In this document: positions 13,224 to 29,404 of the stretch, piece by piece
Layout: every line of letters begins with the position of its first letter
How positions within the stretch are numbered: the stretch's first letter is position 1
Notes under the pieces: model-generated
Told to the model about the DNA's origin: nothing
Databases searched by the model: none
What the model saw: only the letters and a program-made list of their open reading frames with translations
Assembly (NCBI GenBank): GCA_963702305.1
Contig: CAVPBX010000007.1
Location: forward strand, 92,998 to 124,997
DNA: 32,000 nucleotides
Direction: 5' to 3'
DNA from: an uncultured Acidimicrobiaceae bacterium
GTDB taxonomy: Bacteria; Actinomycetota; Acidimicrobiia; Acidimicrobiales; Palsa-688
Program-made: the position numbers and the translations under genes

Positions 13224-13323
13224 CCGTCCACCTTCCCCTGAGCCGCCTCGGGCGCCTCTTGTCCCACGGTCAAACGGGCGGACGCCTCCGGTCCGGCCTG
13301 TGGCGTGCATTGTCAGCACACAA

Positions 13324-13344: not shown

Positions 13345-13560
13345 CCACCCTGGTGTACATTGCTTATGGCGGAAGGGTGAATCGGCATCCTTGGCGGCAC
13401 CAGAGCCGGGCACGTCACCGAAGCTGGGGCTTATGCCTCCGCAATGAAGCGCACGCCACGGGAGTCGCTTTGTGTCGAACCTCCACACCAAGGGGACAAC
13501 GTGGCGCTACGCGTTCCGAAGGCGGAGCTCAGCACCGACATGAGGGAATTCCCCTGATCG

Positions 13561-14670: not shown

Positions 14671-15358
14671 GGTCTCCTCCCTCACGCCCTGAGTCTGGGT
14701 GAGTGTCGATGCGGTACCCGACGCCGGCCACGGTGGCGATGAGCCAAGGTTCGCCAAGGCGTTTGCGCAGCGCCGAGACCGTGATGCGCACCGCGTTGGT
14801 GAACGGGTCCGCGTTCTCATCCCACGCCCGTTCCAGCAGATCTTCGGCGCTGACCACGCCGCCTTCGGCCGCCACCAGAACCTCGAGCACCGCGAACTGC
14901 TTCCGGGTCAGCGCGACGTAGCGGCCGTCGCGGTACACCTCGCGGCGGAACGCATCCAACCGCAGACCCGCGATCTCTCGCACCGGCGGCCGGTTGTGAG
15001 CCCGCCGGCGGTCGAGCGCTCTGAGACGAAGCACCAGCTCCCGCAGCTCGAATGGCTTGGTGAGATAGTCGTCAGCGCCGAGTCCGAACCCCGAGGCCTT
15101 GTCGTCAAGCCGGTCGGCAGCGGTGAGCATGAGGATCGGCATGCCGCTACCAGAAGCGACGATGCGCTTGGCGATCTCGTCGCCAGAGAGCCCGGGGATA
15201 TCGCGGTCAAGCACGGCGATGTCGTAGGCGTTGACGCCCAGCAGATGTAAAGCGGTGTCGCCGTCACCGGCGATGTCCGCGGCGATCGCTTCCAGGCGAA
15301 GACCATCGCGGATGGCTTCTGCCATATAGGGCTCGTCCTCGACGATCAACACACGCAC
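14663..15358 (-). CDS. vanR: VanR-type OmpR-family response regulator
   Basis: MRVLIVEDEPYMAEAIRDGLRLEAIAADIAGDGDTAL...DIAVLDRDIPG...LTKPF... followed by a winged-helix C-terminus. From memory it closely resembles actinomycete VanR. It is divergent from a vanH-type promoter. Confidence 0.85.
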   Translation of the reverse strand: MRVLIVEDEPYMAEAIRDGLRLEAIAADIAGDGDTALHLLGVNAYDIAVLDRDIPGLSGDEIAKRIVASGSGMPILMLTAADRLDDKASGFGLGADDYLTKPFELRELVLRLRALDRRRAHNRPPVREIAGLRLDAFRREVYRDGRYVALTRKQFAVLEVLVAAEGGVVSAEDLLERAWDENADPFTNAVRITVSALRKRLGEPWLIATVAGVGYRIDTHPDSGREGGDRG

Positions 15359-15454
15359 ACTCTCGCGATGCTAGGCGCCGGGGCATATCGTCGGCGTATC
15401 GAAAACCGCATACGGGCTGGTAACACCACGCTGCGTTGACTGGAGGCATGACCT
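15329..15454. repeat. Copy A of the vanR-vanH control region: vanR codons 1-10, an 89-bp divergent intergenic region, and a dead vanH start stub
   Basis: Aligns colinearly with 16843-16970 at roughly 80% identity by eye. It ends in GGAGGC-ATGACCT, a 12-codon ORF (15448-15486, MTYSDSQGSHDT*) homologous to the vanH start. Weaker similarity may extend to about 15478. Confidence 0.8.
15385..15401. promoter_or_regulatory. Candidate VanR box, copy A: ATATCG-N5-GTATCG (11-bp phased direct repeat)
   Basis: The hexamers start at 15385 and 15396. The box lies 27 nt from the vanR GTG and 47 nt from the stub ATG. It is conserved in copy B. Confidence 0.45.
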
Positions 15455-15582
15455 ACAGCGACTCCCAGGGTTCCCATGACACGTGACGAATCGGCCTATG
15501 CCGGGCACTCGGCGCGACCAACGGCCATGTCCGCATCGGACTCCTCTCCGAGGCCATCTACGTCATCACCAATGCCGCAGCC

Positions 15583-16818
15583 GTGACCCAGCAGCGCACC
15601 AGGCCCGGCCGCGACGCCGACTGCCTGCCGGAGGAGTACCTCCGTCTCGAGCGGCGGTCGGCTCGGCGCCCACCCGCCAGGGGCCGGCGGCGGAGGGGGC
15701 GGATGGCCGTCCGGGTCCTGTCGGTGGCCCTCGGCCTGCTCGTGCTGTTCCTCGGGGCGTCGGTGTACGGAGCCGCCACCACGCCGGGCAACCAGAACTT
15801 CAAGGCCAAATGGGCCGACTGGTTGCGGTCCCACCACGCCGCCTTCGTCGTCAAGCCACTGGAGCAGTGGTACTACAACAGCCAGGCCCCGGCCAAGGGT
15901 GGCGCTCCCAAGGCCCTCAACCGGATCCCGGCGGCCTCTGCCCACCCGGCGGGCACCTCGGCGGCACCCGCCGGCCTGCCCGCCCCCAGCCCGGTACCGC
16001 TGGTCGTATCACCGGCCCTCCCGGGTGAGGGCCAGTGGCAGCCCACGGGGCCGATCGTCGACGGCCGGGCCGCCAGTTACGTGGCCCAGTTCCGGGCCGA
16101 CACCATCTACACCAGCCAGATCACCTCGGCGGTCTGGATCGACCCCACCCGGCTGAGGATCCGACTCGTCCCCGGCGCCCAAGAGCCGGGCGGTACCTGG
16201 AGCGTGCCGCCCGACCTCACCGGCACGGCGGCCGCCCAGGCGGTGGCCGCCTTCAACGGGGGGTTCCGGTTCCAGGATGCCCACGGCGGGTTCTACCTGG
16301 GCGGTCGCACCGCCGTACCCCTGGTGAACGGCGCCGCGTCGGTGGTCATCTACAAGGACGGCCGGGTCAACGTCGGCGCCTGGGGCACCGACGTGGCCAT
16401 GACCCCCTCGGTCGAGGCCGTCCTGCAGAACCTGGTGCCGCTGGTCGACAACGGCCAGATCGCCCCCGACGCCACCTACCACGACACCCACATCTGGGGG
16501 AACACCCTCGGCGCCAACACCGTCGTGGCCCGCTCCGGGCTGGGGGTGACGACGTCGGGGGCGCTGATGTACGTGGCCGGCCCGGCCCTGACGGCCAAGA
16601 CGCTGGCCGAGTCGCTGCAGCGGGCCGGGGCAGTGCGGGGGATGACCCTCGACATCAACCCGGAGTGGGTTACGTTCAACTTCTACACCCACCCCGACCC
16701 CGCCGATCCCACCTCGATCACCGGAGCCAAGCTGTATCCGCAGATGCAGCGCTCGGCCGACCGGTACCTCGGCCCCACCGAGGAGTCGCGTGACTTCTTC
16801 TCCGTGTCGACCAGCTGA
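15583..16818 (+). CDS. Membrane-anchored phosphodiester glycosidase family (NAGPA/DUF2233-like) exo-protein
   Basis: Arg-rich N-terminus, TM helix VLSVALGLLVLFLGASVYG, then AAFNGGF...GGFYLGG, VARSGLGVT..GALMYVAGP, GMTLDINPEWV, typical of the bacterial phosphodiester glycosidase family. GTG 15583, or ATG 15703 as an alternative start. Confidence 0.7.
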   Translation: MTQQRTRPGRDADCLPEEYLRLERRSARRPPARGRRRRGRMAVRVLSVALGLLVLFLGASVYGAATTPGNQNFKAKWADWLRSHHAAFVVKPLEQWYYNSQAPAKGGAPKALNRIPAASAHPAGTSAAPAGLPAPSPVPLVVSPALPGEGQWQPTGPIVDGRAASYVAQFRADTIYTSQITSAVWIDPTRLRIRLVPGAQEPGGTWSVPPDLTGTAAAQAVAAFNGGFRFQDAHGGFYLGGRTAVPLVNGAASVVIYKDGRVNVGAWGTDVAMTPSVEAVLQNLVPLVDNGQIAPDATYHDTHIWGNTLGANTVVARSGLGVTTSGALMYVAGPALTAKTLAESLQRAGAVRGMTLDINPEWVTFNFYTHPDPADPTSITGAKLYPQMQRSADRYLGPTEESRDFFSVSTS

Positions 16819-16842
16819 ACGCGGAGGGCTTCTCCCTTGTCA

Positions 16843-16970
16843 GGGCTCGTCCTCGACCGTCAACACACACCCACACACTCGCGATCGTACGAACCGGAAC
16901 ATATCGTCGGTATATCGAAAACTACATACGTGCTGGCAACAGGCCGCGGCGTTGAATGGAGGCGTGACCT
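16843..16970. repeat. Copy B of the vanR-vanH control region: dead vanR 5-prime stub, promoter region, and the live vanH start
   Basis: The minus strand at 16866-16840 reads GTG TTG ACG GTC GAG GAC GAG CCC TGA (VLTVEDEP*), compared with vanR MRVLIVEDEP. Homology stops exactly after codon 10. The copy ends at the GGAGGC-GTGACCT vanH start. Confidence 0.8.
16901..16917. promoter_or_regulatory. Candidate VanR box, copy B: ATATCG-N5-ATATCG (perfect 11-bp phased direct repeat), 47 nt upstream of the vanH GTG
   Basis: The hexamers are at 16901-16906 and 16912-16917. The distance to the start codon is the same as in copy A. Confidence 0.45.
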
Positions 16971-17953
16971 CTGGCAAAGCAGATAGCGCCGTCCCAAGGG
17001 TGGGAATCACCATCTACGGGTGCGGGCCGGACGAAGCCCTTTTGTTCCGAGAGATGGCGCCTCGCTTTGGCGTCAAGCCAACTATCACCGATGCCGCGGC
17101 ATCAGATGCAACTATTGACTTGGCATCTGGGAATCGATGCGTCAGCGTCGGCCACAAGACTCAAATCTCAGGTGACATTCTGCTTGCGCTTCGCCAAGCC
17201 GGTGTTATGTACCTCTCCACTAGAAGTGTTGGATACAACCATATCGATGTCAAACTGGCGGAGAGCGTCGGCATCTCCGTTGAAAACGTCACCTATTCTC
17301 CGGACAGCGTTGCTGACTACACGTTGATGTTGATGCTCATGGCGGTGCGGAATGCCAAATCCACCATCAGCCGCGCCCAGGTTCATGATTACCGATTGAA
17401 TGAAGTACGAGGGAAAGAACTCCGCGACCTGACCATCGGAGTCATCGGAACAGGACACATCGGTGCCGCCGTGATGGACAGGCTGCGGGGGTTTGGTTGC
17501 CACGTACTGGCCTGTGACCGTTGTCCGAAGACCTCTGCCGAATACCTGCCTCTCGACGAGCTGCTACGGCAGAGCGACCTTGTGACGCTCCATACACCAC
17601 TCACCGCCGACACCCACCATCTGCTGAATCGTCAACGTATCGGGCAGATGAGGCACGGAGCATTCATTATCAATACGGGGCGTGGTGCACTTCTCGATAC
17701 CGAGGCCCTTGTCCCGGCGCTGGAGAGCGGCCGCCTCGGGGGTGCGGCGTTGGATGTCCTCGAAGGCGAGGAAGGAGTCTTCTACTCTGACCACAGAAGG
17801 AGACCCATTCAAAGCCAACTGTTGTTGCGGTTACAACAGTTACCGAATGTGCTGATTACTCCGCACACCGGCTACTACACCGATCACGCCCTGAGCGATA
17901 CCGTCGAAAACACGTTCCTCAATTGCCTGCGCTTTGAAAGAAGAGAAGCGTGA
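16964..17953 (+). CDS. vanH: VanH, D-specific alpha-keto acid (pyruvate to D-lactate) dehydrogenase
   Basis: ITIYGCG...GYNHID...IGVIGTGHIGAAV (NAD-binding GxGxxG)...NTGRGALLD...ITPHTGYYT. GTG start with a GGAGG Shine-Dalgarno sequence. GTGA coupling to the ligase gene. About 329 aa. Confidence 0.9.
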   Translation: MTSGKADSAVPRVGITIYGCGPDEALLFREMAPRFGVKPTITDAAASDATIDLASGNRCVSVGHKTQISGDILLALRQAGVMYLSTRSVGYNHIDVKLAESVGISVENVTYSPDSVADYTLMLMLMAVRNAKSTISRAQVHDYRLNEVRGKELRDLTIGVIGTGHIGAAVMDRLRGFGCHVLACDRCPKTSAEYLPLDELLRQSDLVTLHTPLTADTHHLLNRQRIGQMRHGAFIINTGRGALLDTEALVPALESGRLGGAALDVLEGEEGVFYSDHRRRPIQSQLLLRLQQLPNVLITPHTGYYTDHALSDTVENTFLNCLRFERREA

Positions 17954-18984
17954 ATAGGTTGAGAGTCGCAGTCATCTTCGGAGGTTGCTCCGAAGAACAT
18001 CCCATCTCGGTCAAATCCGCGCAGGAGGTGGCAACACACCTCGACCTTGAGAAGTATGAACCGTTCTATATCGGGATCACAAGAAGCGGTACCTGGAAGC
18101 TCTGTGACGGCCCTGACGCAGGCTGGGACAACGGCAGCTGCCGTCCGGCGATGCTGTCACCGGACAGAGGCCTACACGGATTGCTTGTCCTGAAGCAGGG
18201 CCACTACGAAACGATCAGTCTGGACCTCGTCTTCCCCGTGCTCCACGGCAAACTCGGCGAGGACGGGGCGATACAAGGTCTGCTGGAGCTGTCCGGCATC
18301 CCCTACGTAGGCTGCGATGTCCAAAGTTCTGCCCTGTGCATGGACAAATCTCTTGCCTATCTCGTTGCGAGCAACGCGGGAATTGCTATACCAAGGTTCT
18401 GGACCGTCACGGCGAACGAGGATCTCGACCCCGACCGGATTACTTATCCAGTCTTCGTGAAGCCGGCCCGTTCGGGTTCATCGTTCGGCGTCAGTCGTGT
18501 AAGTGAGAAACAAGAGCTGCCGAGTGCGGTTGAGACCGCAAGGCAATACGACTCGAAAGTGTTGATCGAAGAGGTTGTTGTCGGCAGCGAGGTGGGATGC
18601 GCGATCTTCGGGAACGACACGGATTTGATTGCAGGAGAGCCAGATCGAATCTCGCTAGCTCATGGGTTCTTTAGAATCCATCAGGAGAATCAGCCTGAAA
18701 GCGGTTCTGAGAACTCCACTTTCATCGTTCCCGCCGACATCTCGACAGAGGCGCGCGACCTCGTTCAGGAAACAGCAAAGACCCTATATCGAGCCTTGGG
18801 ATGCAGGGGACTCTCGCGAGTGGACATGTTCCTGAAGGAAGACGGAACGGTAGTCCTGAACGAGGTCAACACGCTGCCCGGTATGACCTCATACAGCCGT
18901 TATCCGAGAATGATGGCAGCCGCGGGACTGTCGCTGGCCGATGTGATCGACCGGATCGTGTCGTTGGCGTTGAACGGAAAGTGA
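17950..18984 (+). CDS. vanA: VanA-type D-alanine--(R)-lactate ligase
   Basis: MNRLRVAVIFGGCSEEHPISVKSA...EKYEPFYIGITRSGTWK...GEDGAIQGLLELSGIPYVGCDVQSSALCMDKSL...YPVFVKPARSGSSFGV...FRIHQENQPESGSEN...NEVNTLPGMTSYSRYPRMMAAAG is near-colinear with enterococcal VanA as I remember it, including the omega-loop and the HQE region characteristic of D-Ala-D-Lac ligases. Confidence 0.92.
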   Translation: MNRLRVAVIFGGCSEEHPISVKSAQEVATHLDLEKYEPFYIGITRSGTWKLCDGPDAGWDNGSCRPAMLSPDRGLHGLLVLKQGHYETISLDLVFPVLHGKLGEDGAIQGLLELSGIPYVGCDVQSSALCMDKSLAYLVASNAGIAIPRFWTVTANEDLDPDRITYPVFVKPARSGSSFGVSRVSEKQELPSAVETARQYDSKVLIEEVVVGSEVGCAIFGNDTDLIAGEPDRISLAHGFFRIHQENQPESGSENSTFIVPADISTEARDLVQETAKTLYRALGCRGLSRVDMFLKEDGTVVLNEVNTLPGMTSYSRYPRMMAAAGLSLADVIDRIVSLALNGK

Positions 18985-19613
18985 TGATGCACGAGGACTT
19001 TGTCTTTGTCGACGAGATCGTATCCGGAGTACGTTGGGATGCGAAGTACGCCACGTGGGACAATTTCACTGGCAAGCCGGTGGACGGATATCTAGTAAAT
19101 CGGATCGTCGGCTCGCGGACCTTGTGTGCGGCCCTGGGGACAGCGCGAGAGGTAGCAGGATCCCTTGGCTTCGGCTTGCTGCTCTGGGACGGGTATCGTC
19201 CTCAACGCGCCGTGGATTGCTTCCTGCGCTGGTCCAGACAGCCGGAAGATGACCGGACGAAACGAAGACACTATCCTCACATCGACAGGTCCGAGATCGT
19301 CGCACAAGGATATGTAGCTGAGAAGTCGGGCCACAGTCGGGGCAGCACCGTTGACTTGACGCTCTATCACTTGGCCACCGGTGAACTCGCTCCAATGGGC
19401 GGGGACCATGACCTGATGGATCCGATCTCACATCATGGAGCAAAGGGAATCACGCAAGTTGAAGCGAGAAACCGGCAGCGCCTTCGTTCGATCATGGAGT
19501 CCGGCGGGTTTAGATCCTACGATTGCGAGTGGTGGCATTACACACTGAAGGACGAACCCTATCCGAGCACCTATTTTGATTTTCCCATCACCACTGTTGA
19601 GCCAATTGAATAG
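18984..19613 (+). CDS. vanX: VanX D-Ala-D-Ala dipeptidase
   Basis: DAKYATWDNFTG, LLLWDGYRP, SGHSRGSTVDLTL (Zn ligands), CEWWHYTL. The ATG overlaps the ligase stop codon (TGATG). Confidence 0.92.
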   Translation: MMHEDFVFVDEIVSGVRWDAKYATWDNFTGKPVDGYLVNRIVGSRTLCAALGTAREVAGSLGFGLLLWDGYRPQRAVDCFLRWSRQPEDDRTKRRHYPHIDRSEIVAQGYVAEKSGHSRGSTVDLTLYHLATGELAPMGGDHDLMDPISHHGAKGITQVEARNRQRLRSIMESGGFRSYDCEWWHYTLKDEPYPSTYFDFPITTVEPIE

Positions 19614-20812
19614 ACTATGTCTGGGGGAGAGGTGCGGGTCGACGGGATGGTGACGGTGCAGGAGAGGCCTCCGTCGTTACGGGGGCGGGCGGTGGTGGTA
19701 CCGCCGTGGATCTCGGCAATGGACGCCACGATGGTCAGGCCCAGGCCGAAGCCGTCGTTCGACGAGCGGTTGTTGAGCCGCTGGAATGGATGGAAGATGC
19801 GGTCGGCGTCCGCCGGGCTGATGATTTGGCCAGTGTTTGCGACGGTTAGCTGGCTGTTTCCGGCTGCGGTACGGGTGCTGATCCAGATGTCGCCGGAAGC
19901 GACGTTGTAGCGCACCGCGTTGTCGACCAGGTTGGCGATGAGGCGTTCGACGAGCACCGGATCGCCGGATATGACGGCGCGTTCCAGCGTGGCGTGCACT
20001 TGCCGGTCGCTCAGGCCGGCGGTGTCGAGGATGTCTTCGGCGACCGTGGCCAGGTCGATCTCCTCGTGGACCGCGAGGCCGCGCTCGTTGCGGGCGAGGA
20101 TGAGTAGCGCGCCGATGAGGTGCTCGGCGTGATCCACGGCGGCGCGGATGTCGGCCGCCATGGCTCGCAGCTCGCCGGGGGTGCTGTCAGGGTTGCCGAC
20201 CACGACGTCGATCGTCGTGCCCATGACGGCGAGGGGGGTGCGCAGTTCGTGGGAGGCGTTGGCGATGAACCGCTGTTGGGCTTCGAACGCGGTCTGGAGC
20301 CGGCCGAGCATGTCGTCGAACGTCTCGGCCAGCTCTCGGAGTTCGTCCCGGGGACCTCTCGGCGCGATCCGCGCCGAGAGGTTGTGTTGCGAGGCGGCGC
20401 GGGCGGCCGCGGTGATCCGGTGTACTGGGCGCAGCGCCCGCCCGGCGAAGATCCATCCGAGGATGGCGGCGAGGGCGATGACGACGCCGAGGGTGATCAG
20501 CGAGTACTGCAGCAGGCGCGTCAGGGTGAGGGCGCGCTGCGCTTGCGCGCCCAGGTCGGCCAGAAAAGACCCGGGGCAATTGGAGGAGCCGAGGAAGCGC
20601 TTGTCGCCGCTCAGGTACGCGGACTTGCAGTGAGCCAAGAAGCTGGCCGGAACGCCACTATACGAAGCAGGTGGCTGGGCCTGCCTGGCCACCCCTAGCT
20701 GAGCCACCAGGGTGTAGCTGACGGCCACGATGATCCCCCCACACAGGGCGAACAGGCCGGTGTAGATCAGGGTCAGGCGGGCTCGGACGGTCAGGCGCGG
20801 ACCGCGGGTCAC
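19571..20812 (-). CDS. Sensor histidine kinase (HK2), paralogous to VanS
   Basis: TM1 LTLIYTGLFALCGGIIVAVSYTLVA, an extracytoplasmic loop of about 60 aa with two Cys residues, TM2, HAMP, and the H-box NASHELRTPLA. GTGA overlap with RR2. Its last 14 codons plus the stop codon are antisense to the vanX 3-prime end (43-bp convergent overlap). Confidence 0.8.
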   Translation of the reverse strand: MTRGPRLTVRARLTLIYTGLFALCGGIIVAVSYTLVAQLGVARQAQPPASYSGVPASFLAHCKSAYLSGDKRFLGSSNCPGSFLADLGAQAQRALTLTRLLQYSLITLGVVIALAAILGWIFAGRALRPVHRITAAARAASQHNLSARIAPRGPRDELRELAETFDDMLGRLQTAFEAQQRFIANASHELRTPLAVMGTTIDVVVGNPDSTPGELRAMAADIRAAVDHAEHLIGALLILARNERGLAVHEEIDLATVAEDILDTAGLSDRQVHATLERAVISGDPVLVERLIANLVDNAVRYNVASGDIWISTRTAAGNSQLTVANTGQIISPADADRIFHPFQRLNNRSSNDGFGLGLTIVASIAEIHGGTTTARPRNDGGLSCTVTIPSTRTSPPDIVYSIGSTVVMGKSK

Positions 20813-21453
20813 ATTCTGTATCCCTTGCCTACGACGGTCTCGATCAACGGCGGGTCGCCGAGCTTGCGCCGCAGCCGGGTCATAGTGACGGAGACGATAT
20901 TGCTGAACGGGTCGGAGTTGGCGTCCCACACCTGTTCGAGCAGCTCCTCTGCGCTGACCAAGGCGCCGTCAGCGGCCAGCAGCGTCTCGAGGATCCCGAA
21001 CTCTTTGCGGGTCAGCGTGAGCGGGCTGCCGGCGCGCATGGCGCGGTGGCGGGCGCGGTCGACGGTGAGGTCCTCGCGGACCAATACTGGCGGCGCTGAC
21101 GGCGCTCGGCGCGACAGCGCCCGCACGCGGGCGACGAGCTCGGCGAATGCGAATGGCTTGGGCAGGTAGTCGTCCGCGCCCAGTTCCAGCCCGTCGACGC
21201 GGTCATCGACGTCCCCGGCGGCGGTCAGCATGAGGATCCTCGGGCCGGAGCCGGCTACGTCCCGGCAGACCCGGTCCCCATGGAGGACCGGTAGGTCGCG
21301 GTCGAGCACGATTACGTCATAGGCCGTCTGGTCGGCGGCGTCCAGTGCGGCCGCGCCGTCATACACGACGTCGGTGGCCATCCCGGCCTGACGCAGCCCT
21401 TGAGCGATCCGGTCGGCGAGCGTCGCATGGTCTTCGACCACCAGGACGCGCAT
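20809..21453 (-). CDS. OmpR-family response regulator (RR2)
   Basis: MRVLVVEDHATLADRIAQGL...YDVIVLDRDLPVLHGD...LPKPF...LTRKEFGILETL...GKGYRM. ATG 21453 chosen; the 21720 extension was rejected. Confidence 0.85.
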   Translation of the reverse strand: MRVLVVEDHATLADRIAQGLRQAGMATDVVYDGAAALDAADQTAYDVIVLDRDLPVLHGDRVCRDVAGSGPRILMLTAAGDVDDRVDGLELGADDYLPKPFAFAELVARVRALSRRAPSAPPVLVREDLTVDRARHRAMRAGSPLTLTRKEFGILETLLAADGALVSAEELLEQVWDANSDPFSNIVSVTMTRLRRKLGDPPLIETVVGKGYRM

Positions 21454-21539
21454 CAGGCCATTATGCGCTGCTCGACATGACATCCGTGCAACATCGCCTG
21501 TAGCGCTGATGTCACCCGCCGGAGCGTACAACTGCAGGC

Positions 21540-22214
21540 ATGAAGCCAGTTCATCCTGCCGGCCGCCCTTGCAGAGGCGACGGCCCGCTGCGCCTCGTCC
21601 GGTCGAACGTCGAGGGCACGGGATGGATCGTCGGCGGGCGGGGAGCCTGGCGGCCCAGGAGCGTTTCGCTGACCGCGCTGTTGATTGTCGTGTTGGGTCT
21701 GACCGCGTGCGGGGGCGCATCGTCGCACCGCCCGGGAACTGCCAGCGCCGTCGGTACCACCACCAGCGCCTCGGCCGGTGGCAGTACGCAAGCAGGCGGA
21801 CTCCTGGCGTTCGCCTCCTGTATGCGCTCGCACGGCGTGCCGAACTTCCCCGACCCGACCGCCAGCGGTGGGATCCCGAAGCCTGCCGTTGTCAGCGCAT
21901 TCCAGGCGGTCGGCAACGCCCAGGCGCAGGCGGCCCAGAACGCCTGCAACCACTTGCTCCCCGCCGGAGGGTTGAGTGGGCAGGCCAGCCAGACGGTCAC
22001 CGCCCAAGACCAGCAGGACTACCTCAACGCTGCTGCCTGTATGCGCTCGCACGGGATCACCAACTTCCCCGACCCCGTCTTCTCCAACGGCCACGTCAAC
22101 CTCAACATCCCCTCCAGCATCGACAGCAAGTCACCGCAGTTCACCCAGGCCGCCCAGACCTGCACAAAGCTCATCCCCGCGGGACTCCCCTACAGCAGGG
22201 GCTCCGGAGGATGA
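21540..22214 (+). CDS. Lipoprotein with two tandem CMRSHG-x3-FPDP ... C repeat units, function unknown
   Basis: Lipobox LGLTAC. Unit 1 is FASCMRSHGVPNFPDP...AAQNACNHLLP. Unit 2 is AAACMRSHGITNFPDP...AAQTCTKLIP. Divergent from RR2. The 3-prime end overlaps the RR3 3-prime end by 25 bp. Confidence 0.7.
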   Translation: MKPVHPAGRPCRGDGPLRLVRSNVEGTGWIVGGRGAWRPRSVSLTALLIVVLGLTACGGASSHRPGTASAVGTTTSASAGGSTQAGGLLAFASCMRSHGVPNFPDPTASGGIPKPAVVSAFQAVGNAQAQAAQNACNHLLPAGGLSGQASQTVTAQDQQDYLNAAACMRSHGITNFPDPVFSNGHVNLNIPSSIDSKSPQFTQAAQTCTKLIPAGLPYSRGSGG

Positions 22215-22888
22215 CGCGATGTCAGCGTTGGGTCGATGATCCGGTAGCCGACCCCGGGGATGGTTTCGATCACGTCGGGGGGGCCGAGTTTGCGGCGCAG
22301 CCGGCCGATGGTGACCTGAACCGTTTTGGTGAAGGGGTCGGTGTGTTCGTCCCAAGCCTGTTCGAGGAGGTCCTCGGTGCTGAGGGTGGCGGGCGAGGCC
22401 CGCATGAGCGCTTCGAGCACGGCGAACTCCTTGGTGGTCAGCTCGCACGGCTGGCCGGCCCGGGAGGTGGTCCGGCGGAGCGGGTCGAGCTCGAGGTCGG
22501 CCGCTTTGAGGATGCGGGGCTGAGCGGTGGGTTTTCGTCGGGCCAGGGCCCGCAGCCGCAGGACCAGCTCAGGGAAGTGGAACGGTTTGGGCAGGTAGTC
22601 ATCCGCGCCGAGCCCGAGCCCGCTGACCCGATCCGCGGGGGCGTCGGCCGCGGTGAGCATGAGCACCATGGCCGGGTCATCGCTCTCGGTGATCATCTTG
22701 CAGATGGTGTCGCCGTGGATACCGGGAAGGTCGCGGTCCAGTACGACGACGTCGTAGCGGTTGATGTCCAGCTTGGCGGCGGCGTCGAGCCCCGTGTAGG
22801 CGACGTCGACCGCCATGCCTCGGTCTCGGAGGCCCTCGGCGATGTCGTCGGCCAGTCGCCGCACGTCTTCCACGACCAGCACCTTCAT
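22190..22888 (-). CDS. OmpR-family response regulator (RR3)
   Basis: MKVLVVEDVRRLADDIAEGL...YDVVVLDRDLPGIHGD...LPKPF...LTTKEFAVLEAL...GVGYRI. ATGA overlap with the upstream kinase gene. Confidence 0.85.
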   Translation of the reverse strand: MKVLVVEDVRRLADDIAEGLRDRGMAVDVAYTGLDAAAKLDINRYDVVVLDRDLPGIHGDTICKMITESDDPAMVLMLTAADAPADRVSGLGLGADDYLPKPFHFPELVLRLRALARRKPTAQPRILKAADLELDPLRRTTSRAGQPCELTTKEFAVLEALMRASPATLSTEDLLEQAWDEHTDPFTKTVQVTIGRLRRKLGPPDVIETIPGVGYRIIDPTLTSRHPPEPLL

Positions 22889-24142
22889 GGCAACTCTCGA
22901 TTCGGGCAGGGGGGTGCGGCGTGAGGAAGCTCGACCGCCACGCGCATCCCTCCTTGTGGGCGGGCCCCGAGTTCGATGGTTCCGTGGTGGGCGGCGGCGA
23001 TGGCTGCGACGATGGACAGACCGAGCCCGAGCCCGCCGTCGGCGCCGGTCCGCTCGCCGCCGCCTCGCCAGAACGGTCGGCCCAACTGGCCGGCCTCGGC
23101 GGGTTCGAGGATGGGACCGCTGTTCTCGACGATCAAGCGGGCGGATGGACCCTCAGTCGTGGTTGTGACCTGCACCCACCCGCCGGGCTGGTTGTAGCGG
23201 ATGGCGTTGTCGATCAGGTTGACGGCGAGACGGGCAAGGAGGGTTCGGCTGCCGGCGACCTCCGCCTCGTCAAGGCGGCGGTGCAGGGTCACGTCGGCTG
23301 CGACGGCACCGTCGGCTCGGGTGTCGAGAGCGTCCGCGGTGAGGTGGGGCAACGAGACCGTCGTCAGGTCGTCGATCATCCCCCGCTGGGCTCGGGCCAG
23401 CACCAGGAAGCTCTCCACCAGCCGTTCGGCCTGGTCGAGCCCCTCGCGGACCTTGGCCGAAAGCACCGACGCGTCCTTCGAAATGGGCGGAGACTTGGCC
23501 GCGGCAACATCCAGGGAGGTGCGCATCATGGCGAGCGGGGTGCGAAGCTCGTGCGAGGCGTTGGCCACGAAAGCTCGCTGGGCGCCGAAGGCGCCCTCCA
23601 GCCGGGCGACGAGCCCGTCGATGGTGTCAGCCAGGTCCGTGATCTCGTCACTCGGGCCGGCCAAGCCAAGCCGCTCGTGGAGGTTCTCCTCGGAGATGTG
23701 CCGCGCCGTGGAGGTGATGTGCCGCAGCGGGCGAAGCACCCGACCGGCCATGAGCCATCCCAGCACGACGGAGGCCAGGGCCATGACGCCCAACGCCACC
23801 GCGAACCACACCAGCAGAGTGCGCAAATCCGCGGAGTGCTGTGCGCTTGTCGCGCGCGCGCACCACGCCGGCGCCAGCCGGGAGGATGTGGACGGTGTTC
23901 GAGGGCCCAGGCGAGTGAATGACTGGGCTGCGTGGGGAGGTGATGTGGACGGTGGCCGCGAACGGGAAGCGGGCCACGAACAGGTAACTGATACCAAGCA
24001 GGGCCGCGCCGCAGAGAACGAACAGCGCCCCATAGGCGAGGGCGAGGCGCACCCGCACCGTCCGCCGGGGCAGGCGAGCGCGGGCCAACCGGCGGGCCAC
24101 ACAGGCGTAGGGTCCGAAGGCCACTCCGGTCACGGGTCGCAC
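22885..24142 (-). pseudogene. Sensor histidine kinase (HK3), apparently frameshifted in the extracytoplasmic loop
   Basis: TM1 (VRVRLALAYGALFVLCGAALLGISYLFVA) is in the frame of ORF 23648..24142. TM2, HAMP, the H-box (NASHELRTPLA) and the ATPase domain are in the frame of ORF 22885..24102. The frames switch near the (CG)5 tract at 23851-23861. Confidence 0.65.
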
Positions 24143-24266
24143 GCACTCACGGCCAACTCCGCCTGCACCTGCCGGCGCCGACGTCCGCGAACGCCAAATC
24201 CTGCTGCTCGTCCGACCCCCGATGACCTCTCTCCAGCCGCTTCACGGCCCCCAGCATGGCCCCTGG

Positions 24267-24311
24267 CCGGTAACAGGAAGGTAACAGGCTCTGTTGAGCC
24301 CCTGTTACCGG
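24267..24311. promoter_or_regulatory. Repeat cluster CCGGTAACAGG-aa-GGTAACAGG-N12-CCTGTTACCGG between HK3 and the lipoprotein/exporter operon; candidate response-regulator operator
   Basis: Direct repeats start at 24269 and 24280 (11-bp phasing). A perfect 11-nt inverted copy lies at 24301-24311. The cluster ends 56 nt upstream of ATG 24367. Confidence 0.55.
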
Positions 24312-24366
24312 CGATGTCGTACAACCACCTCCGAACGGTCGTTCGCGAGGAAGGAGCCACGACATC

Positions 24367-24976
24367 ATGGACAAAGACACTGGCCGCTCCCCAGCGGTCA
24401 ACAAATGCCGGTTGCGACGAGTCTGGCGTGCCAGCCTCCCTCTCGTCGGGCTGGCGACCATCGGGCTGCTGGCCGCCGCTTGCGGGAGCGGCTCGAAGGT
24501 TCTGGGGGTCCCGAGCGCCGGGGGGACCACCACGACCGTCGCCCCGTCTGGGTCGTCCGGTTCGGGCGCTTCGGGGGAGACGAGCCAGTCGCAGGAGCTG
24601 CAATTCGCGCAGTGCATGCGGTCCCACGGGGTCGCCGGTTTCCCCGACCCCAGCGCCACCGTGGGCCAACTCCAAAACATCGCCAACTCGGGCGTCAACA
24701 CCCAATTCGCCCACCTACCAGGCGGCCGAGACAGCCTGTAAGAAGTACACCCCGGCCGGGAACATGACCCCGGCCCAGAGCGCCGCCGATAACGCCAAGG
24801 GAGTCCAAGCCTCGCAGTGCATGCGCTCCCACGGGGTGCCCAACTTCCCCGATCCCATCGTCGGCCCAACTGGTGGGCAAGTGATCAACTTGAACGGCTT
24901 GGGCATCGATCTCAACAGCCCGATCTTCCAGGCGGCCCGTGCGGCCTGCCAGAAGATCGTTCCCGGCAGCAAATGA
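24367..24976 (+). pseudogene. Second CMRSHG-x3-FPDP repeat lipoprotein, apparently disrupted by a +1 frameshift
   Basis: Lipobox LLAAAC and unit 1 (FAQCMRSHGVAGFPDP...NSGVNT) are in frame 1. The rest (NSPTYQAAETACKKYTP, then unit 2 ASQCMRSHGVPNFPDP...AARAACQKIVP) is in frame 2. The switch is at the ACCC run at 24700-24703. Removing one C restores a 202-aa protein colinear with the 21540 paralog. Confidence 0.6.
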
Positions 24977-25006
24977 GCGCGACCTCCCAATTGGCGAGGG
25001 AGTCTG

Positions 25007-26671
25007 ATGGCATCCGATAGCGCAGAGATCAGGTCCGCCGCCGTGTCGCACCAGCAAGCGGGCCCGGCCACCGAGCAGCTCCCGGCCGCACCGCACGATC
25101 CCGGCGCCGTGCCAGCCGGCCGCCGTCGGCGTGGGGCGCCCTGGGTGATCGCGGTGGTCGGGGTGCTGGTCGCGGCCGGCGTTGTCGTGGCGATCACCAA
25201 ACCCTTCGCCACGGGAGGAACAGCCAGTCCGGGAGTCGCAGCGAACACCGACGCCACGGGGATCTACACGGTGGCCCGCCAGGACCTGTCCTCCCAGACC
25301 CAGGTGTCGGCGACCCTCGGTTACGCCGGGTCGTTCAGCATCGCGGCCCCGTCAGGGGCGAGCGCCCAGGAGGTGGCCCAGGCCCAGGAGACCGTAACCG
25401 GGGACCAGCAGAGCCTGGCCGCGGACGAGCAGGTCCAATCCGACAAGTCGAGCGCGGATGACCAGGCGATCGTGGCGGCCCAGACGGCTGTCAACACCGA
25501 CCAGTCCATGCTCAGTTCGGACCAGGCCAAGCAGTCCCAGGACTGCGCCGGGTCGGTGGCGTCCAGCCCGGCGTGCACCCAGGATGCCCAGAAGGTCAGC
25601 GGAGACCAGACGCAGCTGACCCAGGCCAACCAGCAGCTGGACAGCGCTCGGTCGACGGCGACCCTAGACCACGACCAGAACCAGGCCAAGGTGGCCTCCG
25701 ACCAGACCAAGCTGGCGGGCGACCAGGCCACCCTGGCGTCGCTGCAAGCCGCCGCAGTGACCCCGGGCGCGACCTACACCTCCCTGCCCGCGGTGGGCGA
25801 CATCATCAAGGAGGACCAGCCGGTCTACTCACTCACCAACGAACCGGTGCCGCTCCTCTACGGGTCGATCCCCGCCTCTCGGGCGTTCTACCTCGGCATG
25901 TCCGACGGCGCCGATGTAGGCCAGCTGACCGGCGACCTGATCGCTCTCGGTTACGGCGCCGGACTGCCCCACAGCAACCACTATTCCTCGGCCACCGCCG
26001 CCTCGGTCGAACGTTGGCAGGGCGCCCTCGGCCTGGAGGCGACCGGCGAGATCCTGCTCGGCCAAGTGGTCTTCGAGCCCGGCCCCATCCGGGTCACGTC
26101 GGTCACGCCTCCGCTCGGCGAGTCCATCGGGGGCGGGGGCGGCATTGGCAGTGGCGGCGGCGGCGGCGGTGGTGGCGGCACCGTGCTGTCGGCGACCACG
26201 ACTACACGCCAGGTCAGCATCGCCCTCGACGCATCTCAACAGTCCGAAGTGGCGGTCGGCGACAAGGTGACCATCACCCTGCCCAACAACCAGAACACGC
26301 CAGGGGTCGTCTCCTCAGTGGGTACCGTCGCCACGACGCCCTCCTCGAGCGGCTCCGGCGGCTCGGGACCTTCGAGCCCCACCATCACGGTGCTGGTGAA
26401 CCCGACCGACCCGGCCGCCACCGGAACCTGGGACCAGGCGCCGGTGAACGTGACCATCACCACCGGAACGGTCACCAATGCCCTGGTCGTACCTATCGCC
26501 GCTCTGCGGGCCAAATCGGGCGGCGGTTACGCGGTCGAAGTCGCGGGCGCCGACGGCACCCATCGCCTGGTGTCGGTCAGCCTGGGCCTCTTCGACGACG
26601 CCGACGGCAGGGTCCAGGTCAGTGGGACCACCTTGGCCGCCGGCCAGCACGTCGTGGTGCCGAACCTTTGA
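25007..26671 (+). CDS. MacA/HlyD-type membrane-fusion (periplasmic adaptor) protein with an inserted peptidoglycan-binding domain
   Basis: N-terminal TM helix, a Q/D-rich coiled-coil hairpin, PG_binding_1-like GADVGQLTGDLIALGY...SVERWQGALGLEATGEILLGQVVF, a Gly tract, and a C-terminal beta-barrel segment (ALVVPIAAL...GYAVEV). Confidence 0.8.
   Translation: MASDSAEIRSAAVSHQQAGPATEQLPAAPHDPGAVPAGRRRRGAPWVIAVVGVLVAAGVVVAITKPFATGGTASPGVAANTDATGIYTVARQDLSSQTQVSATLGYAGSFSIAAPSGASAQEVAQAQETVTGDQQSLAADEQVQSDKSSADDQAIVAAQTAVNTDQSMLSSDQAKQSQDCAGSVASSPACTQDAQKVSGDQTQLTQANQQLDSARSTATLDHDQNQAKVASDQTKLAGDQATLASLQAAAVTPGATYTSLPAVGDIIKEDQPVYSLTNEPVPLLYGSIPASRAFYLGMSDGADVGQLTGDLIALGYGAGLPHSNHYSSATAASVERWQGALGLEATGEILLGQVVFEPGPIRVTSVTPPLGESIGGGGGIGSGGGGGGGGGTVLSATTTTRQVSIALDASQQSEVAVGDKVTITLPNNQNTPGVVSSVGTVATTPSSSGSGGSGPSSPTITVLVNPTDPAATGTWDQAPVNVTITTGTVTNALVVPIAALRAKSGGGYAVEVAGADGTHRLVSVSLGLFDDADGRVQVSGTTLAAGQHVVVPNL
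26129..26179 (+). repeat. GGN/GGC trinucleotide tract encoding GGGGGIGSGGGGGGGGG inside the adaptor protein
   Basis: Read directly: ggg ggc ggg ggc ggc att ggc agt (ggc)5 ggt ggt ggc ggc. Confidence 0.9.
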
Positions 26672-27483
26672 GCGTCAACCCCTGCCGATGGGCCGTGGCC
26701 GGCTTCGATGCCCACCGTCTGCTCGTCGCCAACGGCGGGGATGGGCCGGTGCTCGAGGTCGACCAGGTCACGAAGAGCTACCCGAGCGAGCCGCCGGTGA
26801 CTGCCCTGCGGGAGGTCTCCTTCACCGTCGGCCGAGGCGAACTGGTGGGTATCGTCGGCCCGTCGGGGTCGGGCAAGACCACCTTGTTACACCTGATGGG
26901 CACCTTGGACCGGCCCAGCTCCGGCCGCGTGCGGGTCACCGGTTTCGACGTCGAACGGCTGGTGGACCGCGAGCTGGCCGCCCTGCGGGCCACCAGGATC
27001 GGCTTCGTGTTCCAGCAGTTCTTCCTGGCCGAGCACCAAAGCGCCCTCGACAACGTGGCCGACGGCCTGCTCTACGCCGGGGTCCCACAAGCCGAACGGC
27101 GCGCCCGGGCCGCCGACGCCCTCAGACTGGTCGGGCTCGAGGGGCGACCGTATGCCCGTCCCACTCAACTGTCGGGTGGCCAGCGCCAGCGCGTCGCCAT
27201 CGCCCGAGCCCTGGTGGGCAGCCCGGCCATCGTGCTCGCCGACGAGCCCACCGGCAACCTCGACCAGGCCACCGGGCTGGCCATCTTGGGGCTCCTCGAA
27301 GACCTGCACGAACTCGGGGTGACCATCGTGGTCATCACCCATGACCAAGCCATCGCGGCCCGCATGGGCCGCCGCATCGAGATGCTCGACGGCCGGATCG
27401 TCTACGACAGCGCCCAGCAGACCTCACCAGCACCGACGCCCGCTCCCGGCGACACCACCCACGACGACGACCACCGGCTTTGA
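26668..27483 (+). CDS. ABC transporter ATP-binding protein (MacB/LolD/FtsE type)
   Basis: Walker A GPSGSGKTT, Q-loop, signature LSGGQRQR, Walker B IVLADEPTGNLD, H-loop ITHD. TTG 26668 (TTGA overlap) preferred, GTG 26695 possible. Confidence 0.85.
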   Translation: MSVNPCRWAVAGFDAHRLLVANGGDGPVLEVDQVTKSYPSEPPVTALREVSFTVGRGELVGIVGPSGSGKTTLLHLMGTLDRPSSGRVRVTGFDVERLVDRELAALRATRIGFVFQQFFLAEHQSALDNVADGLLYAGVPQAERRARAADALRLVGLEGRPYARPTQLSGGQRQRVAIARALVGSPAIVLADEPTGNLDQATGLAILGLLEDLHELGVTIVVITHDQAIAARMGRRIEMLDGRIVYDSAQQTSPAPTPAPGDTTHDDDHRL

Positions 27484-28685
27484 CCCCCACCCAGACCCTC
27501 GCAGTGCGAAAGCTGCGCCCCTCGGACCTGGCGCGCCTGTCCACGGTCGGGGTGCGCACCCGCAAGCTCCGAGCCGGGCTGTCCGCGCTCGGGATCGCCA
27601 TCGGGGTGGCCGCCATCGTGGCCGTCTTGGGGCTCTCCTCGTCCGCCTCAGCGGGACTGTTGAATGAGATCTCGGCCCTGGGCACCAACCTGCTGGTAGT
27701 GGAGAACGGCCAGACCGTCACAGGCCAGGCCGCCGAGCTGCCCACCGCGGCCCCGGCCATGATCGGCGTCGTCGACGCGGTGACCGCGGTGCAGCAGACC
27801 GGATCGGTCGGTGGCCACGTCTACAGCAGCCCGCTCATCCCTTCTATCGACACCAACGCCCTCGGCATCGACGCGGCCAGCCTCGGCCTGGTTCCCACCG
27901 TCGGCACCACCGTCGCCCAGGGCAGCTATCTCAACGCGGCGACCGCCCAAGAACCGGTTTGTGTGCTCGGCGCGGCCGCCGCCCAGCGCTTGGGGATCGA
28001 CCGGGTGTACTCGGGAGAGCGGATCTGGGCCGACCACATGTGGTGTTACGTGGCCGGCATCCTCAACCCCGCCATCCTCGCCCCCACCATCGACTCCTCG
28101 GTCCTGATCGGCTTCCCCGCCGCCGAGCACTACCTCGGCTTCGACGGCCACCCGTCCACCATCTATGTCCGCGCCCAAACCAGCCACGTCAACGCGGTCG
28201 ACCATCTCCTCGCCGCCACGGCCAACCCCGAGAACCCCAGCCAGGTCGACGTATCCCAACCCTCGGCCGCGCTCGTCGCCCAAGCCGACGCCAAAGGAGC
28301 CTTCGACGGCCTCTTCTTGGGACTCGGCGCCATCGCGCTCCTCGTCGGCGCGGTCGGGGTGGCCAACATCATGATCATCTCGGTCCTCGAACGACGATCC
28401 GAGATCGGACTGCGCCGCGCCCTGGGAGCCACCAAAGGCCATATTCGCATCCAGTTCCTCGCCGAAGCCGTCCTTCTTTCCATCACTGGCGGCGCCGCCG
28501 GCGTCGCCGCAGGCGCCCTCACCACCGCCATCTACGCCACCACCAAACACGAACTCATCGTCATCCCCGCCCTCGCCTGGGCCGGCGGCATCGGCGCAGC
28601 AGTCCTCATCGGCGCCATCGCCGGCCTATGGCCCGCCATACGCGCCGCCCGCTTGTCACCCACCCAAGCCCTCTGGAGCACGTGA
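27480..28685 (+). CDS. ABC transporter permease, MacB-like (N-terminal TM, periplasmic domain, C-terminal FtsX 3-TM bundle)
   Basis: LSALGIAIGVAAIVAVLG at the N-terminus, a large extracytoplasmic domain, then FLGLGAIALLVGAVGVANIMIISVLERRSEIGLRRALGA (FtsX signature). TTGA overlap with the ATPase gene. Confidence 0.85.
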   Translation: MTPTQTLAVRKLRPSDLARLSTVGVRTRKLRAGLSALGIAIGVAAIVAVLGLSSSASAGLLNEISALGTNLLVVENGQTVTGQAAELPTAAPAMIGVVDAVTAVQQTGSVGGHVYSSPLIPSIDTNALGIDAASLGLVPTVGTTVAQGSYLNAATAQEPVCVLGAAAAQRLGIDRVYSGERIWADHMWCYVAGILNPAILAPTIDSSVLIGFPAAEHYLGFDGHPSTIYVRAQTSHVNAVDHLLAATANPENPSQVDVSQPSAALVAQADAKGAFDGLFLGLGAIALLVGAVGVANIMIISVLERRSEIGLRRALGATKGHIRIQFLAEAVLLSITGGAAGVAAGALTTAIYATTKHELIVIPALAWAGGIGAAVLIGAIAGLWPAIRAARLSPTQALWST

Positions 28686-28733: not shown

Positions 28734-29114
28734 TCAGACGGGCACGATCTCGATGAGGTTCTCGATCCCGGCCAAGTCCGTCGGGTTTCGGGTGTACAGC
28801 CGAGCGGAGTGGGCATGGGCCGTGGCCGCTACCAGGATGTCCATGTCTCTCGATCGTGGTTGGCGACCAGCGGCAACTACAGCCGCGGCGAGTTGACCGT
28901 AACTCGTGGCGACGTGGTCATCGACAGGCAATGGGTCGAAGGTTCGTTGGAGCACGGAGAGTCTCCGGAGACGTTCGGCGCGCACACCAGGGTCGGTGGT
29001 GACCAGCACGCCGAAGTGCAACGCAGCGAGCGAGGCGGCGCTGATGGCGAGCTCTCCCTCGAGTGGCTCCACATCAGTAGCGATCAACACGCTGGTGTCC
29101 AGAATCGCTTTCAC
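28734..29114 (-). CDS. vapC: VapC-type PIN-domain toxin
   Basis: VKAILDTSVLI (first acidic residue), ...SAASLAAL..., DILVAATAHAHSARLYTRNPTDL. GTGA overlap with the antitoxin gene at 29111-29114. Confidence 0.8.
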   Translation of the reverse strand: MKAILDTSVLIATDVEPLEGELAISAASLAALHFGVLVTTDPGVRAERLRRLSVLQRTFDPLPVDDHVATSYGQLAAAVVAAGRQPRSRDMDILVAATAHAHSARLYTRNPTDLAGIENLIEIVPV

Positions 29115-29404
29115 CGCGCCCGCTCCCACGGATTCGCAACGGATTGGTCGACCAGGTCGACGTCGCGCTGCCAATCCGAGTCAGCACGGCCGGTGAACAA
29201 GTCGGCGAGGTCATCCCAGCGCTGCCACCTCTTCGGCGCGGCGGAGACCATCCGGGCCGCAGGGCGCCCCGAGACGGTGATCTCGATCTCTTCGCCGTTC
29301 TCGACCTGTCGTACCAGGTCGGATGCATCCTGGCGCAGGGGTCGGTTTCTCCGGGCCTGCTTGAAGGGCGCGGGGGGATAGACGGTTCTGCTGACCAGCG
29401 TCAC
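29111..29404 (-). CDS. Phd/YefM-like antitoxin
   Basis: ASDLVRQVENGEEIEITVSGRPAARMV matches the Phd/YefM N-terminal fold signature. Its GTG start overlaps the stop codon of the doc remnant (GTGA, 29401-29404). Confidence 0.7.
   Translation of the reverse strand: MTLVSRTVYPPAPFKQARRNRPLRQDASDLVRQVENGEEIEITVSGRPAARMVSAAPKRWQRWDDLADLFTGRADSDWQRDVDLVDQSVANPWERAR

Follow-up and report, generated by a model that had tools for sequence, protein, structure and literature searches.

A conserved actinobacterial gene module combining a two-component system, a lipoprotein of an undescribed family and a MacB-type pump, found beside van genes

Introduction

Do the signalling, lipoprotein and exporter genes found directly beside a set of van genes extend the function of these genes, or do they make up a system of their own? 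The question is raised by a stretch of 32,000 nucleotides from an uncultured Acidimicrobiaceae bacterium (GCA_963702305.1, contig CAVPBX010000007.1, positions 92,998 to 124,997), hereafter called the window. Its segment 19571-28685 encodes two sensor kinases (HK2, HK3), two response regulators (RR2, RR3), two lipoproteins (LP1, LP2) and a pump made of an adaptor, an ABC ATPase and a permease (Table 1). The original prediction, made from the DNA sequence, proposed that this segment is a poorly described envelope-stress sensing and export system that recalls the Bce modules of Firmicutes, and that RR2-HK2 could have taken over the control of a decaying third module. Inducible ABC detoxification modules have been well studied in Firmicutes, and most antibiotics are made by the phylum Actinomycetota. 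The gene content and order that had been described for the segment were borne out by the listing of open reading frames (ORFs) and by Pfam and NCBIfam scans.

We put at about one half the probability that a conserved actinobacterial module is present here twice, beside a horizontally acquired vanHAX island, with no functional tie between module and island. Module 2 (RR2-HK2 / LP1) is a short version without a pump of its own, and module 3 (HK3-RR3 / LP2-adaptor-ATPase-permease) is the full version. We favour reading the module as an inducible system for envelope export or defence that has a new lipoprotein as partner. Its MacB-type pump with an adaptor is of a known kind, and what is new here is a module variant built around a new lipoprotein family.

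Conservation of the module

Genomes were scanned with LP1, and the 80 loci with the best tblastn matches were then probed by tblastn with the window proteins. These loci belong mostly to Solirubrobacterales, Acidimicrobiales, Gaiellales and other Actinomycetota. A divergent two-component system lies beside the lipoprotein gene in 59 of them, the adaptor and the ATPase are found within 10 kb in 58, and a lipoprotein gene sits directly upstream of the adaptor gene in 56. All three features (two-component system, lipoprotein gene upstream of the adaptor gene, and pump) occur together in 54 loci. When loci were reached via adaptor homologues, the same full set was present in four out of four. Hence, the co-occurrence of the components that the original prediction implied is conserved, and is not limited to chance association. 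The order of the window from LP1 through RR3, HK3, LP2, the adaptor and the ATPase to the permease is repeated exactly in two loci (L009 and L091).

Soil lineages such as Solirubrobacterales, Acidimicrobiales and Gaiellales commonly carry the module, which also occurs in some cultured Streptomycetaceae and Streptosporangiales. It is present in the cultured Embleya sp. NBC_00888. In Nonomuraea gerenzanensis there is no adjacent two-component system, as is also the case for the pumps of loci L008 and L027. A plasmid collection gave distant matches only, with two records (Embleya, Nonomuraea) carrying a lipoprotein homologue. Full-text literature searches returned no description of the module, which is not mentioned either in reviews on MacB transporters and on Streptomyces two-component systems. 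The system can thus rightly be called poorly described.

A MacB-type pump with a peptidoglycan-binding adaptor

The ABC ATPase matches ABC_tran in Pfam (E=8e-33), and its best NCBIfam matches are the nucleotide-binding domain of MacB, FtsE and LolD, all under the equivalog cutoffs. The permease matches MacB_PCD (E=9.5e-17) and FtsX (E=5.6e-19) in Pfam, and phmmer against the PDB retrieves MacB (5lil, 5gko, 5nik) and Spr0695 (5xu1). In other words, the pump has a MacB-type permease and a nucleotide-binding domain of the MacB/LolD/FtsE group. Its genes had been described as coupled by TTGA overlaps. This is so between ATPase and permease, where the start of the latter overlaps the stop of the former; the adaptor/ATPase junction has a TTGA too, but the ATPase may start at GTG 26749 instead. 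In many Solirubrobacterales loci (e.g., L001, 14070-15425), 1.0-1.4 kb lie between the ATPase gene and the permease match, and the window has no such gap. This spacing suggests an extra gene, possibly a second divergent permease.

In the adaptor, PG_binding_1 (PF01471) scores 25.8 bits against a Pfam cutoff of 23, and the domain is found in nearly all of the 120 adaptor homologues listed. There was no HlyD match in Pfam even at E<=1, and phmmer against the PDB gave matches only to Gly/Ser linkers. An AF2 model built on 40 homologues has an N-terminal transmembrane helix, a helical hairpin of ~60+60 residues and beta-barrel domains, with PG_binding_1 inserted. Searching the PDB with this model in Foldseek gave MacA of MacAB-TolC as the best match (5nik_D, E=6e-11), followed by AcrA, MexA and Spr0693 (5xu0). 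Because the modelled fold matches these four proteins, we regard the adaptor as a membrane-fusion protein with an inserted peptidoglycan-binding domain, whose predicted architecture is the hairpin and beta domains of MacA. Two near-invariant cysteines, Cys180 and Cys190, flank the loop at the hairpin tip (QDCAGSVASSPACTQD, 25544-25576). The hairpin tip is the position at which Gram-negative adaptors contact TolC.

The pump is of the MacB family with an adaptor, and the systems closest to it in kind are the Gram-positive YknXYZ (Bacillus) and Spr0693-0694-0695 (S. pneumoniae). They consist, as here, of a membrane-fusion protein encoded separately, an ABC ATPase and a four-helix MacB/FtsX permease, in cells that lack an outer membrane. 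YknX binds peptidoglycan (PMC5985334), and the adaptor of the module would be associated with it as well, here by way of PG_binding_1. The module differs from YknXYZ and Spr0693-0695 in the inserted PG_binding_1 and Cys-stapled hairpin tip of its adaptor, in an operon that starts with one to eight lipoprotein genes of a novel family, and in having, as part of the unit, a divergent OmpR-type two-component system that is dedicated to it and has an operator of its own.

What the Bce systems (BceRS-AB) share with the module is the genetic coupling of a two-component system with an ABC transporter whose permease has an FtsX-type domain. BceB has ~650 aa and 10 transmembrane helices, the seventh and eighth of which are separated by a large extracellular domain, and BceS, which is almost without an extracellular loop, senses through the transporter. 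In contrast, the permease of the module has 401 aa and four transmembrane helices, with one MacB_PCD after the first helix and one FtsX; its kinases have loops of 50-75 aa and a HAMP domain; and an adaptor and a lipoprotein are present. Neither a BceB-type permease nor an intramembrane-sensing kinase is thus found, and the suggested kinship with Bce-type modules falls away.

A large family of lipoproteins

LP1 contains two copies of a helical repeat, C-M-R-x-H-G-V-x-x-F-P-D-P ... C-x-x-L-I-P. In an alignment of 40 homologues, the lipobox Cys57 and four more cysteines (Cys94, 136, 167 and 208) are invariant, and so are the Arg and the F-P-D-P; the Met of the repeat changes to Ile or Leu, and the His to Ser, Asn, Arg or Gln. 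The signature of the family consists of a lipobox Cys, a flexible tether and two C-[MIL]-R-x-x-G-x-x-x-[FV]-P-D-P ... C-x-x-[LM]-[IV]-P repeats, all of which are present in LP1 and in the reconstructed LP2. The AF2 model of LP1 is all-helical, with a pLDDT of ~90 for the domain, and it places the four cysteines on facing helices, as they would be for disulfides.

Neither LP1 nor LP2 matches a family of Pfam or NCBIfam. By sequence, LP1 has no relative of solved structure in the PDB, and its model has no fold match there. A word-index search with the lipoprotein gave 4,335 matches, and 1.84 billion representatives searched with a profile yielded 8,084 clusters (50% identity) at E<=0.001 and 3,855 at E<=1e-10. 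In cultured Streptomycetaceae, every annotation of these lipoproteins reads hypothetical or secreted protein. This is thus a large family without a description so far, in agreement with the view that the lipoprotein lacks a family annotation. Among six long members that we examined, one (P0310) has an extra domain, ABC-2; this fusion of an ABC-2 permease to a lipoprotein may be a read-through gene call.

The closest relatives of LP1 are encoded by the last gene of cassettes formed by GntR, an ABC ATPase, an ABC-2 permease and a lipoprotein, which occur in 10 of the 80 loci. Loci with such a cassette include L084-L086 (8001-8621), L001, L004, L006, L020, L024, L030 and L077. These cassettes contain no two-component system. 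In several loci, the GntR cassette is placed between the unit of two-component system and lipoprotein and the genes of the adaptor and MacB pump. An LP1-type gene faces a NarL-type system in L091. The lipoprotein gene is present in one to eight tandem copies per locus, and its product is the most divergent component between orthologous modules, with 55-75% identity vs 80-94% for the response regulator, ATPase and permease.

Two-component systems and their operators

The H-box ANASHELRTPLA and the receiver motif VLDRD.P...GD are present in all three pairs of the window (VanRS, RR2-HK2 and RR3-HK3), and inspection of the sequences bore out the claim that these motifs are common to them. The further claim that RR2-HK2 and RR3-HK3 are clear paralogues of VanRS holds as regards kinship, but this kinship is only moderate: VanR is 51-52% identical to RR2 and RR3 (51% to RR2), and VanS 34-39% identical to HK2 and HK3. 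RR2 and RR3 are 56% identical to each other. VanR-O/VanS-O is the best-scoring named family for all four proteins, yet their NCBIfam scores are under half of the cutoffs (210 for RR2 and 227 for RR3 against 505 for VanR-O; 188 for HK2 and 180 for HK3 against 720 for VanS-O), which are allele-specific, so that the VanR (463) and VanS (487) of the window itself fall under them as well. Since the module regulators of unrelated loci also show 51-54% identity to the VanR of the window, the kinship is a subfamily relationship and not a local duplication. The orthologues of RR3 in L009, L083, L090 and L091 are 84-94% identical. Both kinases have an extracytoplasmic loop between their first two transmembrane helices, followed by HAMP. 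This loop has ~75 aa in HK2 and ~52 aa in HK3, and the residues after the H-box (DHp) differ between the two.

The intergenic regions between regulator and lipoprotein genes have a common layout, with a pair of direct half-sites at a distance of 11 bp, then one or two inverted copies and, just ahead of the lipoprotein gene, a -10 box. It was found in most of the 63 such regions, with TACAAC, TAGAAC or TACAAG as the -10 box. In module 2, the half-sites are GACATC (21479) and AACATC (21490), 11 bp apart, and an inverted GATGTC stands at 21508. The -10 box TACAAC (21527-21532) ends 7 nt before the ATG of LP1, which suggests that the LP1 mRNA may be leaderless. The orthologous loci L005, L014 and L019 have kept this operator block. 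In module 3, GTAACAGG occurs in direct orientation at 24270 and 24281, again with an 11-bp period, followed by the inverted copies CTGTTGAG (24291) and CCTGTTAC (24301), the -10 box TACAAC (24320-24325), the Shine-Dalgarno sequence GGAAGGAG (24349) and the ATG of LP2 (24367). There are three exact copies of GTAACAGG in the 32 kb, every one at this promoter, and the block is conserved in L009.

The class of the half-site goes with the recognition helix of the regulator: TNAVKIT with GGTTTC, TGAVRIT with TGTTTC, TTTVKVT with GGTTACA, SNIVSVT with GACATC, and TKTVQVT with GTAACAG. A single locus often holds two classes of half-site. This is the case in the window, where SNIVSVTMT of RR2 goes with GACATC and TKTVQVTIG of RR3 with GTAACAGG. 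The pairing argues that each regulator would directly control its own lipoprotein/pump operon and be insulated from the other. As RR2 and RR3 differ in recognition helix and half-site, and their kinases in the residues after the H-box, control of the pump promoter by RR2 is disfavoured, and the idea that RR2-HK2 took over the pump finds no backing. The module thus offers a natural example of how operator and recognition-helix diversification may keep paralogous two-component systems apart.

Frameshifts in module 3

HK3 is frameshifted by one extra C in a (CG)5 run at 23851-23861, and LP2 by one extra T in CAATTCG at ~24705, whose removal restores Q-S-P-T as in the orthologues. The orthologues of HK3 are single ORFs in L009, L083, L090 and L091, and those of LP2 in L090 and L091 are single ORFs across the frameshift point. 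For comparison, a JGI contig from a different metagenome (L092) is 99.37% identical to positions 11821-24037 of the window (12.2 kb), with 75 single-nucleotide polymorphisms (SNPs). It differs from the window by two indels only, and in each case the window has one base more in a short repeat. The HK3 site is one of the two, and HK3 is intact in this contig. For the frameshift site of LP2, scans of metagenomes for the pattern yielded no independent assembly. In one ENA project, four long-read contigs that are nearly identical but come from different samples (L083-L086) have the same genes split at different places, namely those of a histidine kinase, a response regulator, an ABC ATPase and a permease.

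The frameshift of HK3, and by extension that of LP2, more probably reflects faulty assembly or a mutation of very recent date than a settled pseudogene. Both frameshifts had been correctly read from the window sequence, but the decay of the third module that was deduced from them does not agree with an intact HK3 in a 99.4%-identical contig. Apparent pseudogenes in the window should thus not be over-read, and frameshifts in long-read assemblies call for caution. Elsewhere in the window, suspicious pairs of ORFs turned out to be separate genes, and the other genes look unbroken. Concerning the SNPs between the window and the JGI contig, 46 of the 75 lie within 20000-21500, i.e., in the N-terminal half of HK2 and in RR2, where they change 12 amino acids of HK2 and 3 of RR2. 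Such clustering looks like a recombination tract or like a sensor that evolves fast.

Relation to the van genes

In all 80 related loci, vanH, the D-Ala-D-Lac ligase gene and vanX are absent. The adjacency of module and van genes is real, as the JGI contig has the same van-to-module gene order in an independent assembly, but it is lineage-specific, because 0/80 related loci carry vanHAX, and accidental. In the window, vanHAX has 56-60% GC vs 66-70% for its flanks. The functional link to the van genes that had been considered is thus supported neither by the 80 loci nor by the nature of vanHAX as a low-GC insert. The pairs of the module resemble VanR-O/VanS-O in the H-box and receiver motifs and in the best-matching named family, and an 11-bp direct repeat is found next to vanR, in its intergenic region, as well. 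They differ in that neither the 80 loci nor the orientation of RR2-HK2 towards vanHAX gives a conserved van link. Hence, they neither reach the VanR-O/VanS-O cutoffs nor show linkage to vanHAX.

Several further observations concern the van locus. The genes of vanH, the ligase and vanX (16790-19613) have a weak bias in GC at third codon positions, and vanS, vanR and an ORF with a NAGPA (phosphodiester glycosidase) domain have a host-like composition; by this measure, the structural van genes seem to have arrived later than the genes that regulate them. The best model for the ligase is VanI (665 bits, cutoff 700), and it passes the generic D-Ala-D-Lac ligase model. The NAGPA ORF (15583-16818) stands between vanR and vanH and is an unusual companion in a van cluster; in L084-L086, a NAGPA gene is found a few kb from the GntR-ABC-lipoprotein cassette. 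The intergenic region between vanR and the NAGPA ORF contains a direct repeat at 15383-15401, GCATATCG-N3-GCGTATCG, whose period is 11 bp. Similar half-sites, GGTATCG, belong to module regulators with the helix TNAVKITVS, to which the recognition helix of VanR, TNAVRITVS, is nearest. The genes of vanX (+) and HK2 (-) converge and share 43 nt at their 3' ends (19571-19613), so that the last ~14 codons of HK2 are complementary to coding sequence of vanX. The low-GC island has its right edge at the end of HK2.

Proposed function and alternative explanations

We propose that the kinase would sense an extracytoplasmic signal, and that the phosphorylated regulator would bind the two tandem half-sites of each divergent promoter, raising its own synthesis and switching on the lipoprotein and pump genes. 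The pump, by means of the MacB mechanotransmission cycle, would then drive a compound off the outer face of the membrane and out through the channel of the wall-anchored adaptor. The tethered lipoprotein would be an effector partner that binds the compound or hands it over, functionally like LanI with LanFEG and LanRK. In the latter (e.g., NisI/NisFEG/NisRK), a two-component system induces a tethered lipoprotein and an ABC exporter that clears the compound from the outer face of the membrane. The induction logic would be common to both, as a functional analogy only, and close relatives of LP1 sit behind ABC-2-type exporters, as in LanFEG. The differences are that the lipoprotein has no sequence or fold relation to LanI (Pfam, PDB fold) and that the pump of the window is MacB-type with an adaptor, not ABC-2. 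Lantibiotic genes were not found near the module, which is thus not a LanI/LanFEG system.

The evidence favours a role of the lipoprotein as an effector partner of exporters over that of a private co-sensor, because its gene heads the pump operon, forms tandem arrays, occurs in ABC-2 cassettes and beside a NarL-type system, and because it is the component that diverges fastest. A private co-sensor, i.e., an accessory of the kinase in a three-component system like LpqB-MtrAB or CseA-CseBC that has the pump as merely one target, is in our view unlikely, if worth keeping in mind. Such systems, together with AfsQ3-AfsQ1Q2, tie a lipoprotein gene to an OmpR-type two-component system in Actinobacteria (PMC9739842). 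In these cases, the lipoprotein gene is inside the operon of the two-component system, whereas that of the module is divergent and heads the pump operon, so that it would be transcribed with the pump and not with the kinase. Sequence relationship with LpqB or CseA is also absent in comparisons with the NCBIfam models. A co-sensor would fit well with a lipoprotein gene that is always the first gene across from the two-component system, with kinase loops of 50-75 aa that could contact a partner, and equally well with the pairs of two-component system and lipoprotein that have no pump (module 2 of the window, L074 and L078), which keep a sensing role a live rival. It would be harder to reconcile with lipoproteins that follow GntR-regulated ABC-2 exporters without a two-component system, with those beside a NarL-type system or with pumps lacking an adjacent two-component system (L008, L027, Nonomuraea), and with up to eight tandem paralogues per locus. 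A module for copper or silver homeostasis, with a CopRS/CusRS-like two-component system and a lipoprotein whose Cys/Met/His motif binds metal for export, is improbable. Second to the Van models in NCBIfam come the heavy-metal sensor and regulator subfamilies TIGR01386 and TIGR01387 for HK2/HK3 and RR2 (with RR3, RppA is placed slightly ahead of TIGR01387), and the motif C-M-R-x-H is conserved; however, the scores are 166-183 against cutoffs of 279-292, and the four cysteines sit on facing helices in the model, in a disulfide-like manner. The copper-binding role is further weakened because Met and His are replaceable in the alignment, where Cys, Arg and F-P-D-P are the invariant positions. We know of no MacB-type pump that is a metal exporter.

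That the lipoprotein could be a cargo, extracted by the MacB permease as in LolCDE and passed by the adaptor to the wall or surface, we hold to be highly improbable. The lineages that carry the module are, as far as we know, monoderm, which makes a Lol-like role unlikely, and some of the lipoproteins have no pump beside them or accompany ABC-2 exporters, which do not resemble Lol. A LolA-like carrier was not seen, and the LolC/E models of NCBIfam score very weakly. What speaks for a cargo is the position of lipoprotein genes directly upstream of the pump genes in 56/80 loci, a flexible tether about as long as the adaptor hairpin, and the MacB architecture of LolCDE (PMC5985334). We give the least credence to a functional extension of the van genes in which module 3 decays and RR2-HK2-LP1 controls the pump. 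It would account for the physical adjacency, which is reproduced in the JGI contig, for three two-component systems of one subfamily and for the two frameshifts of the window. Against it stand the absence of vanHAX from all 80 loci and its low GC, the differences between RR2 and RR3 in recognition helix and operator and between the kinases after the H-box, the intact HK3 of the 99.4%-identical contig, and the assembly noise of the sister long-read contigs.

Several points also weigh against our preferred reading as an inducible export or defence module. Two-component systems paired with a lipoprotein in the absence of a pump occur, as noted, in module 2, L074 and L078. The 80 loci, chosen by their match to LP1, are a biased sample of the family, and the co-variation of helix and half-site is partly due to the common descent of orthologous loci. 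The overall pLDDT of the adaptor model is 60, with the hairpin and beta domains alone being confident. No clue to the substrate was found, nor any biosynthetic or target genes conserved near the module. A bolder and more tentative reading, to which we give less than even odds, is that the Cys-stapled lipoprotein represents a new, phylum-wide class of extracytoplasmic partners for MacB/adaptor and ABC-2 exporters, which would act as a tethered ligand trap or as a cap docking on the disulfide-looped tip of the adaptor channel, in an unnoticed and rapidly diversifying antibiotic-defence system of soil Actinomycetota with self-insulated two-component systems. The identity of the substrate could reveal a new mechanism of intrinsic resistance in Actinomycetota.

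Gene map of the window

The map was built from the ORF listing, codon-position GC, and the Pfam and NCBIfam scans (Table 1). The window has 64-71% GC, with a stretch of 56-60% at 17-20 kb. Within the modules, the stop of RR2 and the start of HK2 overlap by GTGA, and the stop of HK3 and the start of RR3 by ATGA.

Table 1. Position and description of the features of the window
Feature	Coordinates	Strand	Description
APH-family kinase	762-1622		upstream part of the window
rph	10629-13418	-	rifamycin-inactivating phosphotransferase, 1598 bits vs cutoff 999
van context	13561-19613		vanS (-), vanR (-), NAGPA-domain ORF, vanH, D-Ala-D-Lac ligase, vanX (ends 19613)
HK2	19571-20812	-	sensor kinase with two transmembrane helices, extracytoplasmic loop of ~75 aa, HAMP, HisKA, HATPase_c (Pfam, NCBIfam)
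RR2	20809-21453	-	OmpR-family response regulator, recognition helix SNIVSVTMTRLRRKL
Module 2 operator and promoter	21479-21532		predicted from sequence
LP1	21540-22214	+	lipoprotein, lipobox LTAC (Cys57), Ser/Thr/Gly-rich tether, two repeats
RR3	22190-22888	-	OmpR-family response regulator, recognition helix TKTVQVTIGRLRRKL
HK3	22885-24100	-	sensor kinase, extra C in (CG)5 run shifts the frame inside the sensor loop
Module 3 operator and promoter	24270-24325		predicted from sequence
LP2	24367-24976	+	lipoprotein of the LP1 family, lipobox AAAC, first gene of the pump operon, split by extra T at ~24705
Adaptor (membrane-fusion protein), 554 aa	25007-26671	+	PG_binding_1 (Pfam), AF2 fold
ABC ATPase, MacB/LolD/FtsE type	26668-27483	+	start TTG 26668 or GTG 26749
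MacB-type permease, 401 aa	27480-28685	+	MacB_PCD 33-234, FtsX 282-394 (Pfam)
PIN-domain (VapC-like) ORF and overlapping upstream 97-aa antitoxin-like ORF	28734-29404	-	directly after the permease

Further downstream, the region of ~29.7-31.7 kb is without convincing ORFs, and its GC drops to 63%. Resistance-type genes are abundant in the window, including rph and the APH-family kinase.

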